Assembly (NCBI RefSeq): GCF_000026545.1
Contig: NC_011601.1
Length of the DNA: 64,000 bases
DNA from: Escherichia coli O127:H6 str. E2348/69
Lineage (GTDB): Bacteria; Pseudomonadota; Gammaproteobacteria; Enterobacterales; Enterobacteriaceae
Strand: one strand, 5' to 3'
Shown here: positions 1-6,000 of the stretch, piece by piece
Position numbering within the stretch: the first letter of the stretch is position 1
Layout: the number at the start of each line of letters is the position of its first letter
Program-made: the position numbers

Positions 1-3000
1 ATTCCGCGCAGCAATCTCACCACACAGGGTTTAGGAAAAAAATATCCCATAGCCAGTAACAAGACCGCCCAGGGCCGCGCCGAGAACCGCCGCGTCGCAG
101 TGGTGATTACAACCCCTTAAAACATGAGCAAACAGACAAAAAAAGGGCCAGCCAATTGGCCAGCCCTTCTTAACAGGATGTCGCTTAAGCGAAATCTTAG
201 TTAAGACGCTTTTACATGATACCATTGATAAACATGCATTTTTCATTATAAACAGTTAGTTATATGTATCACTAGTGTAGTCAAGTGCAGCCATAAACAT
301 GCTGTGTGGGCAGATTGTGGACACTACTTATTTCCCTGTCCAATCTTACCCGCAACTGCCTCGGTAAGCTTTACTAAGGTTTCAAGTTCATTTTTGTCTA
401 ATTTTCTTGCTTCAATAATTTCAGTAGTCTGCCCTGATTCTAGTTTTCCAACTCTTGAGCTAAAATTAATTTTATCCAGAAGGTCTATCATATCGATATC
501 TTTCTGGCTAGCCATTACAAGCTTTATAATGGCATAGCTTTCCTCACGTGAACGTTTTATTGCCTCGTAATAGCGAAACTCATCCATCGTAACCCGATAT
601 TGCTTCAAAAAGAAAAATGCGATTAACTCCAAGAAAATCAACACGCCAAAATTAGGGAGAAGATACATTACCTTGGTTACCGCATCATCCTTAGCATCAA
701 TTACATGTGATTGAGAATAGAAGAAACCTAATCCAACTATTGCAAAACAAACACCGACTAATAAATAAAGACTACCGCGAGAATATATGTTTTTCGCAAG
801 ACCTTCAGAGCTATTAATCAAACCTTTAAGATAAAAATCCAGAGATTCATCTTCATCAGCAGCAGCCCTTTCCTCTTGAGCCTTCTTGAGTAGTTTTATC
901 TCATTTATAATATCGACAATATTAAACATCGATGATTTGTCGACTGAATCACTCCCTGTAATTCTCATAAACATTCTTTGGATTGGAGACACACCATAGA
1001 TAATGGTGTAAACGATTACAAATGACACTGCGAATATTGACCTGATAAAGCTCGGCAAATGTGTAAGATCTGCTCTCGCACTGGGAAATAAATAATAAAA
1101 GGTTGAGTCTAATATCCCTGTAGCAAAAATTACATTTGCAACTAGAAAGACTGCACCTATCTCAACTAAATTATAAAAACCACGAGTGCGTACCCTAATG
1201 ACTTTGGCCTCGGTCATTCTTGGAGGTGTTTCGATGGTTGGCTCACTCATCATATAATCCTGTTAAATTAGAAATAGGGTTAAGAGTTACAGCTTCTTCT
1301 AAATGATCTGGTGCAAAATGAGCGTATCTCATGGTTTCCCTAATGTTAGAATGGCCCAAGATTCGTTGCAGTACTAAAATGTTCCCACCATTCATCATAA
1401 AGTGACTCGCAAATGTATGACGTAACACATTCGTTTTTTGCCCTTCAGCTAACTCTATATCGGTCAGAGCGAGCATTTTCTTGAACTCCTGATAGCAGGG
1501 GTGGAACATTTTTCCCTGTAAAGGAGCCAACTCGTCATATAGCCACCGAGGGATCGGTACTGTACGATTCTTCTTTCCCTTGGTTTGGGAGAAGGCTCTG
1601 CATTACCTGTTGGCGTCCCTGTTCCGTGGCCTTCAGCCACACCGCCAACAGGCTGGCTGAAATGCAATGGTGCAGCTTTTTCTGCTGAAGAATACCCGGA
1701 ACTGGCAAAGGCTTATCCGGCAAATAAATTGCCTGATTTACGTGGTGAGTTTATTCGTGGCTGGGATGACGGACGGGGGATTGATACAGGTCGCTCTATT
1801 TTAAGTATTCAGGGGTATGCAACGGAGGATCATGCTCATGGATTACCGTCAAGATCCACGATTGTGACTGATGCAACGATTAATTTCTATTTTGATGAAA
1901 GCTGGGTAAATAGTGGCACTGACATTATCAAAAGAGGAAACACAAACGATGCCGGATTACCAGCACCGGATTATGGAACCTTTAAAACATATAAACAATC
2001 AGTGGCTGGTTTAGGTGCCGCAGCCTCAGAAACGCGTCCGCGTAATATTGCATTTAACTATATCGTGAGGTCAGCCTGATGCATAAAGCAATATTAAATA
2101 GTGAGCTTATTGCAACAAAGGCAGGGGATGTTACCGTTTATAACTACGATGGTGAAACACGGGAATATATTTCCACGTCAACTGAATATCTTGCGGTTGG
2201 CGTCGGTATCCCGGCATGTTCTTGTTTAGATGCGCCAGTTACACATAAAGCTGGTTATGCAATCTGCCGTTCTGCAGATTTTAACTCATGGGAATATGTG
2301 CCAGACCATCGCGGTGAAATCATCTATAGCACAGAAACAGGAGAATCGAAAGAAATCACAGCTCCGGGTGATTATCCTGAAAATACAACCACTATCGCCC
2401 CGTTAACGCCATACGATGAATGGGATGGTGAGAAATGGGTAACAGATACTGTGGCACAGCATAGCGCCGCAGTAGGCGCGGCAGAAGCACAGCGTCAGTC
2501 ACTGATTGATAATGCAATGGCTTCCATTAGTCTGATTCAGCTGAAATTGCAGGCCGGACGGAATCTGACGCAGGCAGAAACCGCCCGACTTAACGCTGCG
2601 CTGGATTACATTGACGCGGTGACGGCAACAGATACCAGCACCGCGCCGGATGTCATCTGGCCTGAACTGCCGGAGGCGTAGGCCATTCAATATCTGGCGC
2701 ACCGGAAGTATCGACCAGTTCCAGTGCGTCCAGATAATCCAGCCACAAATTATATTGCGCCAGTTCCTCACCTTTCAGACGACCAATAGCCGCTTTACCA
2801 GGCCATTGTTTACTGTTCATATAATCGTTGGCCTGATTAATCAGTTGCTGCTTTTCAAGTTCGGCTGCAGCAATCTGTTCCTCATGTGTTGGTGGTGGAA
2901 TTTCAGTCCATGCAGGAAAACTATTTTCTCCAGCGATACGGATTTTTCCTTTCGGCGGTAATCCGGAAAACTCAATATACACTTGCTCATCAACTTCAAC

Positions 3001-6000
3001 AGCATCATCTGGCCATGAGTCAGCTTGAGTGTAATCCTCTTTCATCTCCAGCGGATAGAAAGAGTTTGTAGTCGCGGAATATATGTAATTCATTTTTCAC
3101 TCCATATAGCTAAATTAACAGCCTAACGCTAAAAATGAAGCGCCGAGGCCAGGAGTACTGGCTCTGGATATAAATTTAACCGGGTCGGGACTAAAACCTG
3201 CACAGGCAATATAACCAACAGCCCCGCTATCTGGTGTGTAGTCTTGTGAGACCAAAACACGCAGACATCTGTTTGGAAATGCAATCGGGAAATGGGTTAC
3301 TACATCCTGTGCAATGCCTGGTGCGCCGATTGAGCCCCACTGAAGAATAAAACCTGATGGAAATTTTTGATATCCAGTACCTGAAACAGAAAGCGTGAAG
3401 CTACCCATATCAGGTATCTGATTCGCCCCTGTCCCTACATTCCTTTTAGCCGCTTCTCCCAAACCAACGTTTAAGAAAATGTAGTTTTCCCCCCTAGCTG
3501 GCATCATTTGGGCTTTTGCATGAGGGAAAACAAATGCAGGTTGGCTATGTGCGCGTATCAACAAATGAACAAAATACCGCGCTACAGCGTGACGCGCTGG
3601 AACGGTCGGGATGTGAGCTAATTTTCGAGGATAAAATCAGCGGTAAATCGACAAACAGGCCAAGGTTAAATCGCGCACTCAGGCAACTTAATGCCGGTGA
3701 TACTCTCGTTGTCTGGAAGCTCGACAGGCTCGGGCGTAGCATGCGCCATCTTGTCTCTATGACTGAAGAGCTTCGCCAGCGAGGGGTTAATTTCAGAAGC
3801 CTGACCGACAGTATTGATACCTCAACCCCGATGGGGCGATTTTTCTTTCACATCATGGGCGCTCTTGCAGAAATGGAACGCGAGTTAATCGTCGAACGAA
3901 CCCGCGCCGGGCTGGATGCAGCCCGGGCACAAGGCAGGATCGGAGGTCGTAGGCCGAAGCTGACGCCTGATGAATGGGCTCAGGCTGGCCGGTTGATTGC
4001 GGCCGGAGAATCCCGACAGCGTGTTGCACTGATTTTTGATGTGGGCATATCGACGCTGTATAAAAAATTTCCGGCGACAAATCCCGTTGTGTCAGCCACC
4101 GGCGAACCCTGACAAATAGCCGCATACAGGCGTAAACCAGACAATATCACTCACCTCAACTAACGGAGTTAAACGGATGAGTGATTATCATCACGGTGTC
4201 GAGGTCGTCGAAATTAACGACGGCACCCGCACAATCTCGACGGTATCAACGGCGGTCGTTGGCATGGTCTGCACAGCCAGTGATGCTGACGCCGGGGCTT
4301 TCCCTCTCAATGAGCCGGTGCTGATTACCAACCCACAAAGCGCCATCGCAAAAGCCGGTACTAAAGGTACCCTGGCAAAATCCTTACAGCTCATCGCTAA
4401 CCAGTCAAAACCGGTTGTCGTTGTTGTGCGTGTCGCGGAGGGTACCGGCGACGGCGAAGAGGCACAGGCGCAAACCATTTCTAACATCATCGGCACCACG
4501 AATGAGAATGGCAAATATACCGGGATGAAAGCGCTGTTAACGGCGAAAGCGGTCACCGGCGTGAAGCCACGTATTCTCGGTGTGCCGGGGCTCGATACTC
4601 AGGAGGTGGCGACCGCGCTTGTCTCCGTGGCTCAGAAGCTGCGCGCTTTCGCCTATGTCAGCGCGTGGGGCTGTAAAACCATTGCTGACGTTATCGCCTA
4701 CCGCGAAAACTTCAGCGCCCGTGAGCTCATGATTATCTGGCCTGACTTCCTCGGGTGGGATACCACGGCCAACGCGACCACAACCAGTTATGCAACAGCG
4801 ATCGCGTTGGGACTGCGCGCAAAAATCGACAATGATACAGGCTGGCATAAAACCCTGTCAAACGTCGGCATCAATGGCGTCACCGGTATCAGTGCGTCGG
4901 TCTTCTGGGATTTGCAGGAATCTGGCACTGATGCCGACCTGCTGAATGAGGCCGGTGTTACGACGCTGATTCGTGCCGATGGTTTCCGCTTCTGGGGTAA
5001 CCGTAATTGCTCCGATGACCCGCTGTTTCAGTTTGAGAACTACACCCGCACCGCACAGGTCATAGCCGACACAATAGCCGAGGGGCATATGTGGGCGAAC
5101 GATAAGCCCATCACCGCGACGTTGATTCGCGACATTATCGACGGCATCAACGCGAAATTCCGCGAGCTGAAAACCGGCGGTTACATCATCGATGCGACGT
5201 GCTGGTTTGACGAAGAGGCCAACAGTAAAGAAACCCTGAAAGCCGGGAAACTGTTTATCGATTATGACTATACGCCGGTGCCGCCACTCGAACACCTGAC
5301 CTTACGCCAGCGCATTACTGATAAATATCTGGCGAATCTTATCTCGTCCGTCAACAGCAAATAAGGAGCCTGACAAATGGCATTACCGCGCAAGCTCAAA
5401 CTCATGAACCTGTTTATCGATGGGGTGAGTTATCTCGGCGTCGTGCAGTCCGTCACGCTGCCGAAATTAACCCGCAAGCTCGAGAACTATCGCGGCGGCG
5501 GGATGAATGGTTCGGCACCGGTCGACCTCGGCCTCGATGACGATGCGCTGTCGGCTGAAATCTCTCTCGGCGGCTTCCCCGATGACGCTATCTGGTCGTT
5601 ATACGCTGCCACCGGCGCGGCCTCCGTACCGCTACGTTTTGCCGGGTCTTACCAGCGTGATGACACCGGCGAGACCGTGCCGGTTGAGGTTGTTCTCCGT
5701 GGCCGTCAGAAAGAAATCGACCTCGGTGAAGCCAAACAGGGCGAAGACACCGAGTCGAAAATCGCTCTCGCGTGTACCTATTTCAAGCTGACGATGAATG
5801 GCTCGGAACTGGTGGAAATCGACACCGTGAACCTCATCGAAAAAGTGAACGGCACCGACATGCTCGAGGCGCACCGACAAAATATCGGCCTGTAATTTAT
5901 GCCCCGGTCAGCATGGCTGGCCGGGCATCCTGAAACCAGAATTTAACGAGAAATATCATGGATAAAACTAACGAAAATATCGTCACTCTGATTAAACCCA

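Follow-up and report, generated by a model that had tools for sequence, protein, structure and literature searches.

In the enteropathogenic Escherichia coli (EPEC) strain O127:H6 E2348/69, the interval between yfiB and rplS holds a 10.5-kb remnant of a 186/P2-like prophage, within which a short DNA segment flanked by inverted repeats lies beside a gene for a serine DNA invertase. The locus was analysed as part of a 64,000-nt stretch of contig NC_011601.1 (assembly GCF_000026545.1), hereafter the window, to which all positions refer unless another sequence is named. Compared with complete genomes, the window matched E2348/69 at 100% identity. The remnant comprises, in order, an open reading frame (ORF) of 309 aa, an integrase fragment (int'), the invertible switch, the invertase gene, and genes for sheath, tube, gpE/E', tape measure, gpU, gpD and an Ogr-like regulator. 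The segment is an invertible host-range segment of the Mu G, P1 C and e14 P type, carried here by a 186/P2-like prophage, and the features that define it and adjoin it are the following.

1243-1593, minus strand: C-terminal fragment of a tyrosine integrase (int'), annotated 'incomplete; missing N-terminus' and matched by XerC/D-type C-terminal profiles
1568-1593, plus strand: hybrid left crossover site, which is also a deletion junction, TTCTTCTTTCCC TT GGTTTGGGAGAA, with the core TT at 1580-1581
1580-1594: left arm of a perfect 15-nt inverted repeat, TTGGTTTGGGAGAAG
1585-2079, plus strand: variable fibre C-terminal cassette 1, Collar domain (Pfam PF07484)
2079-2681, plus strand: tail-fibre assembly chaperone for cassette 1 (PF02413; phrog_105, full length)
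2653-3093, minus strand: tail-fibre assembly chaperone for cassette 2 (PF02413; phrog_188)
3115-3465, minus strand: variable fibre C-terminal cassette 2, gp53-like C-terminal domain (PF21882)
3453-3467: right arm of the perfect 15-nt inverted repeat, CTTCTCCCAAACCAA
3454-3479, plus strand: right crossover site, Din-type, 26 bp, TTCTCCCAAACC AA CGTTTAAGAAAA, with the core AA at 3466-3467
3534-4112, plus strand: Gin/Pin-family serine DNA invertase, 192 aa, with a GAGGG ribosome-binding site upstream (Pfam PF00239 and PF02796)
3556-3618: candidate recombinational enhancer in the 5' end of the invertase gene, a motif match of two Fis-consensus-like 15-mers 48 bp apart (starts 3556 and 3604)
4177-10759, plus strand: surviving right arm of the prophage, from sheath to Ogr-like regulator, assigned from the annotation and an intact relative

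Domain searches recovered all four genes that the initial annotation had described between the repeats, namely two alternative fibre C-termini, each with its cognate assembly chaperone (Caudo_TAP), in opposite orientations. Matches of cassette 1 to PHROG fibre families were confined to the C-terminal parts of those families (e.g. positions 481-636 of 673), and cassette 2 likewise matched at their C-termini only, while a search of NCBIfam returned nothing for the fibre cassettes or chaperones. Reading of the sequence at 1585-2079 showed cassette 1 to be without a constant exon, without an ATG and without an upstream Shine-Dalgarno sequence. No further copy of the invertase or of a fibre segment was found elsewhere in the 64-kb window.

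The repeat that bounds these cassettes had been reported as a perfect 14-bp pair. The pair exists, and the right arm at 3454-3467 was correctly placed, but the left arm, given as 1581-1594, was off by one base, and the arms are 15 nt long with a spacer of 1858 nt between them. By our own arithmetic, a perfect 15-mer inverted repeat is expected by chance about 0.004 times in approximately 3 kb, and a repeat search of positions 1200-4200 found no second perfect inverted pair, all remaining pairs being imperfect. The right crossover site, which encloses the right arm up to 3467, agrees with the consensus TTYTCNNAAACSNNSGTTTNNGARAA at 20 of the 20 specified positions and is the sole match in the 64-kb window at three or fewer mismatches (expected number 0.02). 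The left site agrees at 16 of 20 positions, with all four mismatches in its outer half, which scores 6/10, whereas its inner half and its core are correct (TT, against AA in the right site). The inner half of the right site reads TTCTCCCAAACC in E2348/69 and TTCTCCTAAACC in an intact relative, and it is because of this single change at 3460 that the arms form a perfect 15-mer; the change recalls the 'localized conversion' at crossover sequences described for Cin.

Comparison with intact prophages revealed what the remnant has lost. At the same yfiB-rplS locus, E700025 carries a complete prophage with full-length int, cI, replication, head, lysis and baseplate genes and a fibre gene of 355 codons, of which approximately 203 lie outside the left crossover site (TTCTCAAAAACC TT GGTTTGGGAGAA). 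The P2/186-like gene order (int-cI...Q P O N M L...V W J I H G-FI FII E T U D ogr) is full in the intact relative, whereas E2348/69 retains int', the switch and FI-ogr, with several proteins identical to those of the intact relative, and the baseplate, head, lysis and replication genes are gone. The constant fibre exon (203 codons; L002 19396-20004 in the intact relative) is also absent, and int', on the opposite strand, occupies its place. This bears out the earlier claim that the switch lacks a constant fibre exon and has an integrase fragment in that position and, with the constant 203 codons missing from the remnant, agrees with the further claim that neither orientation can encode a full fibre. 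Up to the breakpoint, int', which adjoins the left arm, is 99% identical to the 3' part of the full-length int of E700025. Nine other complete genomes, E700025 among them, align to the window (97.8% identity) only over the part that starts at base 1578. In its C-terminal tip (1800-2040 in the window, 20200-20430 in L002), the Collar cassette is wholly different from that of the intact relative, which is otherwise 98% identical, a pattern that points to a putative cassette exchange at the receptor-binding tip.

Relative to the intact prophage at the same locus, E2348/69 is missing 21,073 bp between two TT cores in direct orientation. The lost stretch begins in the middle of int, takes in the genes for immunity, replication, head, lysis and baseplate, and ends with the fibre gene's constant 203 codons. 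On the int side, homology to the intact relative covers 385 of 387 nt up to ...GATTCTTCTTTCCCTT, after which fibre sequence begins; the int homology ends at ...TTTCCCTT, with G instead of C as the next base. In a three-way alignment, intact int reads TTCTTCTTTCCC TT CGTTTTAGTGAA, the junction TTCTTCTTTCCC TT GGTTTGGGAGAA and the intact left site TTCTCAAAAACC TT GGTTTGGGAGAA. One breakpoint is therefore the central TT of the 26-bp left crossover site and the other the central TT of a look-alike site within int, the hybrid left site having taken its outer half from the int look-alike and its core TT and inner half from the original left fibre site. Among phage and prophage relatives, homology likewise begins at the site core (query positions 11-13).

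The standing of the int look-alike was assessed by scanning the 32.6-kb intact prophage with a site consensus built from natural half-sites alone. The two natural sites scored 20/20 and the next best score was 15/20, reached at four positions that included the int site. This joint-best non-natural site is the only one of the four with a TT core, and its right half, read on the other strand as TTCACTAAAACG, has one mismatch to the half-site consensus (9/10 specified positions).

From this arrangement it appears likely that the 21-kb deletion was catalysed by a Din-family invertase acting at a secondary site, because random endpoints would fall on both site centres with a joint probability of the order of 1e-7 (our own arithmetic). 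The invertase would have synapsed the left site with the secondary site in int, leading to a rare deletion in place of an inversion. Recombination between the two would yield a junction reading ...TTTCCC TT GGTTTGGG, in which the poor half of the int site is joined to the inner half of the left site to give the hybrid left site, while the good half would have been left on an excised circle that was subsequently lost. The position of int' next to the left arm would then be no accident, since int' marks a deletion ending at the left-site core and the int look-alike. Gin- and Cin-mediated deletions and secondary-site events were reportedly described by Plasterk and colleagues in 1983 and by Rozsa and colleagues in 1995. 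Ligation in the recombinant configuration requires matching core nucleotides (PMC4817059) and, as cited in PMC4134206, the central dinucleotide governs the choice of quasi-sites by Cin (Iida & Hiestand-Nauer 1987).

The initial annotation had proposed that the segment could still flip, and this was upheld both by public assemblies, which contain the two orientations, and by a published ratio of 93:7 in E2348/69 colonies. We built the flipped segment in silico and sought it in a public protein collection and in contigs. In the flipped state the Collar cassette is fused to a short frame outside the right site, and such fusion proteins, of 179, 178 and 198 aa, are present in the public protein collection. 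The contigs that encode them carry the invertase, the flipped segment, int', a 308-aa ORF and yfiB, that is, the same deletion with the segment in the opposite orientation, and one of them (L004) matches the window flipped in silico at 100% identity across 9,507 nt. Altogether, 38 loci were retrieved, comprising 15 in the native state, 22 in the flipped state and one (L041) that reaches neither junction. The int-side junction is exact in nine native and seven flipped loci, and is base-identical in both states. Four single-nucleotide polymorphism (SNP) haplotypes each occur in both orientations (no SNP; 2333+6026; 2333+6026+6461+7007+8175; and 2333+6026+1431), which implies at least three independent inversions after the deletion.

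Inversion has also been recorded in culture. In colonies of E2348/69, paired-end mapping, a methodology validated by PCR, led Goldberg et al. 2014 (PMC4272514) to three prophage loci that invert, with both orientations coexisting in single colonies. Their P2 locus (Table S1; NC_011601.1 2977580-2979467, 1,888 bp, repeat printed as TTGTTTGGGAGAAG) was 93 +/- 4% forward in four colonies, as against 51% for e14 and 60% for the Mu-type locus in that study. Using Equation 2 of that paper with c = 0.07 and approximately 30 generations, we estimate an inversion rate of about 0.003 per generation, which fits a handicapped switch that is off equilibrium within a colony and randomised among isolates. 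In cultures, and repeatedly among natural isolates, the orphan segment thus continues to invert with precision, using the hybrid left site and the intact right site. Its slow flipping presumably reflects a left site with one good half-site, the G44R substitution carried by the local enzyme, or both.

Three further observations were made among the retrieved loci. Two gut metagenome assemblies that share the label VATA22-2 (L008 and L018) carry the E2348/69-type remnant in opposite orientations. In GCA_900450255.1 (L005 / L036), which is in the flipped state, the hybrid left core lacks one T (CCC-T-GG; window 1580-1581), either as a long-read indel error or as a real footprint in the cleavage core that would lock the switch. 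Contigs from the ERZ7615xx assemblies (ENA; L027, L029, L030 and L031) stop at one shared position, flipped coordinate 2907, inside a chaperone gene, which suggests that part of this gene is repeated elsewhere in those genomes.

The invertase starts at 3534, 66 bp beyond the end of the right arm at 3467. It shares 73% identity with Mu Gin over 183 aa, aligns with the Gin structure 3uj3 over residues 1-183 (E = 1.5e-85; motif VRVSTNEQ), and possesses the catalytic Ser9 and a C-terminal helix-turn-helix. Pairs of Fis-like 15-mers with the spacing of the candidate enhancer occur three times in the 64-kb window. The earlier description of the invertase as intact held for its ORF, its ribosome-binding site, its helix-turn-helix and its start 66 bp beyond the right repeat, but not for a near-invariant glycine, which is replaced by arginine (G44R, base 3663). 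This is the sole residue by which it differs from the enzyme of the intact relative, and it means that not all strongly conserved residues of the catalytic core are kept. Residue 44 belongs to an R-P-G-L motif and lies two residues past an arginine that is essential in Hin, just before helix B; among the 120 closest 90%-cluster representatives it is glycine in 119, serine in one and arginine in none. In Hin, mutation of R43 is inactivating, and basic residues of helix B contact the enhancer (PMC3798978). All orphan loci have arginine 44, and reading of 24 contigs out of 225 index blocks showed the R44 protein nowhere outside the orphan context.

E2348/69 has four invertase-like loci in all, three of them in addition to the local one, and the Mu-type locus has the same half-site GGTTTGGGAGAA and the same core TT (repeat from PMC4272514). 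The earlier suggestion that the invertase might act in trans on other invertible segments of the genome is plausible on these grounds, and the catalyst of flipping may be either the local invertase or one of the three others.

We also considered what the flip could still do. A frame on the minus strand crosses the right site (3468-3564, ATG at 3507) and is in frame with whichever cassette faces it, giving fusions of 130 aa and 179 aa in the two orientations, which annotation pipelines label 'phage tail protein'; alternative C-termini at this locus were noted by Goldberg et al. (PMC4272514). This in-frame continuity follows from the symmetry of the crossover sites, and the short leader outside the right site is also present in intact relatives. 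No Shine-Dalgarno sequence was read ahead of the ATG at 3507, and a promoter scan returned seven promoter-like sites against 7.0 in shuffled sequence, so that expression of the cassettes is not supported. No fibre or particle can be made, because the constant exon and the baseplate, head and lysis genes are gone, and the flip is most likely a functionless relic, since it has no fibre gene left to edit.

Several points weigh against this account of the deletion and of the flipping that followed. Wild-type Hin/Gin-type invertases strongly prefer inverted sites, acting in an enhancer-bound complex (PMC4817059), and efficient deletion was documented, in the literature found, for Fis-independent invertase mutants only; since wild-type enzymes disfavour deletion, the event here must have been a rare side reaction. 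The junction contains 4 bp of perfect microhomology (CCTT) within an 8/9 match, and the outer half of the int site is poor (6/10 specified positions). As the G44R enzyme may be inactive, the local invertase is not certain to have performed either the deletion or the inversions, and G44R may have preceded, caused or followed the deletion. Finally, the equation of the locus of Goldberg et al. with this segment rests on length, repeat sequence and prophage type. The microhomology in particular would suit an origin by illegitimate recombination or replication slippage at a short direct repeat (CCTT or CCTTnGTTT), with no recombinase and a merely coincidental overlap with crossover sites, and such an origin would agree with the frequency of random deletion in prophage decay and with the aversion of wild-type invertases to deletion. 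We nevertheless regard it as unlikely: both ends fall in the 2-4 central bases of 26-bp windows scoring 20/20 and 15/20, six of approximately 32,600 prophage positions score 15 or more and, among the non-natural ones, only the int site has a TT core, so that random endpoints would share these properties at the chance of about 1e-7 given above. Microhomology alone fails to explain the location of the junction, because 32 kb should contain tens of thousands of imperfect 9-mers as good as this one. Two other routes were set aside. A two-step route, in which the int site and the right site first recombine in a large inversion and a deletion follows, would give the same end structure, but it still needs a deletion step and is less parsimonious; P2 Int or homologous recombination was rejected because the endpoints do not coincide with att sites and lack extended homology to each other.

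For the inversions that followed the deletion, it could be argued that the two orientations are assembly artefacts, given that short-read assemblies can mis-join at repeats, or that they stem from two independent deletions instead of inversion after a single one. Both are very improbable, as a 15-nt repeat is far below assembly k-mer length, 16 contigs (several longer than 20 kb or megabases long) cross the int-side junction exactly, the junctions are base-identical in both states and single colonies contain both states together (PMC4272514). A more serious contender, to which we assign somewhat less than an even chance, is that G44R has killed or crippled the local invertase, that a different Din invertase of E2348/69, encoded in the Mu-type prophage, in the other P2-like prophage or at the fourth locus, performs all flipping in trans, and that the local gene is decaying. 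It draws on the near-absence of substitutions at G44 (119/120 glycine, 0/120 arginine), on the place of this residue in the R-P-G-L motif beside the essential arginine (Hin R43), on the four invertase-like places in the genome and on the identity of the Mu half-site and core TT; trans-inversion has moreover been inferred for Phi4 of EC958, where the local invertase is truncated, and shown for PinQ on e14. Against it stand the undamaged ORF, ribosome-binding site and helix-turn-helix, and the lack of any further invertase change in any of the 38 orphan loci; the hybrid site explains the slow flipping equally well, and loss of function through the change at residue 44 is only predicted. With respect to function, the switch might instead have been co-opted, its inversion toggling a truncated receptor-binding domain and chaperone in a phase-variable manner, e.g. 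for masking of a phage receptor as for e14 StfE2. The in-frame fusions called as genes in both orientations (130 and 179 aa), the alternative C-termini remarked on by Goldberg et al., the undamaged cassettes and chaperones and the adsorption-blocking protein produced by PinQ-driven inversion of e14 (PMC12529663) speak for co-option, yet we think it improbable, as the in-frame continuation follows from site symmetry, the ATG at 3507 has no Shine-Dalgarno sequence before it, promoter-like sites are at chance level and intact relatives have the same leader. Intactness of the cassettes needs no selection either, because the lineage is young, with at most seven SNPs in 9.5 kb. A bolder composite would have a Din invertase destroying its own prophage, G44R perhaps loosening its control, and the orphan persisting as a slow phase-variable module that alternates two truncated receptor-binding domains with their chaperones and gives the EPEC1 lineage a surface or anti-phage phenotype that depends on orientation, on the model of PinQ/StfE2; this is a speculation of ours with a slightly slimmer chance still.

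Among known systems, the e14 P segment with Pin of E. coli K-12 is similar in having a Din-family serine invertase beside a 1.8-1.9-kb segment in a non-inducible prophage remnant, two fibre C-termini with two chaperone genes, flipping in ordinary cultures and a nearly identical inner half-site and core (AAACCTTGGTTTGGGAGAA(GG); repeat from PMC4272514). It differs in that e14 has kept the constant fibre part (stfP/stfE fusion) and two full sites and stands at about 50:50, whereas the orphan, at 93:7, has lost its constant exon and is left with a hybrid left site whose outer half is degenerate. Mu G with Gin and P1 C with Cin share with the orphan the invertase features (73% identity to Gin, Ser9 and helix-turn-helix), 26-bp sites with a 2-bp core and alternative Sv/U-type cassettes, and the candidate enhancer in the 5' end of the recombinase gene, a weak motif match here, may be a further likeness; the P2/186-like host element, the lack of a constant exon and G44R set the orphan apart. 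The P2-like prophages Phi1, Phi2 and Phi4 of EC958 have the same architecture, 26-bp sites and inversion evident in long reads, with trans action inferred where the local invertase is truncated, but their 5' constant fibre region is present, whereas the orphan flips without a target gene. PinQ (Qin) and PinR (Rac) are likewise leftover Din parts of decayed prophages that are still active and can act in trans; they are invertases without a segment of their own, whereas here segment and invertase survive without the constant exon.

The proposed deletion itself resembles quasi-site recombination by Cin and Gin, which pairs a true site with a poor match that shares the central dinucleotide, crosses over in the 2-bp core and leaves a hybrid product. 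Those Cin and Gin events were selected in the laboratory, whereas the event considered here is read from a natural scar, a 21-kb deletion that destroyed the prophage of the enzyme itself.

At the margins of the remnant lie two ORFs of less certain affiliation.

324-1253, minus strand: cargo ORF of 309 aa that marks the left end of the remnant (WP_001294850.1), also found downstream of full-length int in an intact relative
10797-11519, minus strand: hypothetical ORF of 240 aa between the Ogr-like regulator gene and rplS, kept in the intact relative

The 309-aa product has several hydrophobic stretches and is identical in the intact relative; its gene, a possible cargo (moron) gene of the prophage, is flanked by the prophage end and int and overlaps the int stop codon. 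It had no match in NCBIfam, a PHROG match of unknown function only, and no credible match in PADLOC, where the sole match was to Cas5a (E = 0.0015). The 240-aa ORF had no match in PADLOC or PHROGs.

With the Mu G, P1 C and e14 P segments, this class of invertible segment entered the textbooks. Inversion at this E2348/69 locus is itself already known, having been measured in 2014 (Goldberg et al.), while the orphan status of the segment and the manner of its origin are apparently new. Useful new details of a known system are also the hybrid site, the evidence for a secondary-site deletion, the G44R allele and the flipping that has recurred in nature. The locus offers a natural example of a serine invertase apparently recombining at a secondary site and deleting most of its own prophage and, if this is true, it represents a way in which a phage's own enzyme drives the domestication of the prophage. 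It also provides a crossover site with one good half-site that still supports precise and repeated inversion in nature, whereas secondary-site deletion and one-half-site inversion are usually known from laboratory selections. For work on EPEC, the locus introduces heterogeneity into a reference and challenge strain that is widely used, and its segment fragments are easily mis-annotated as 'phage tail protein'. For the invertase family, the G44R allele constitutes a ready-made test of a conserved residue beside helix B.

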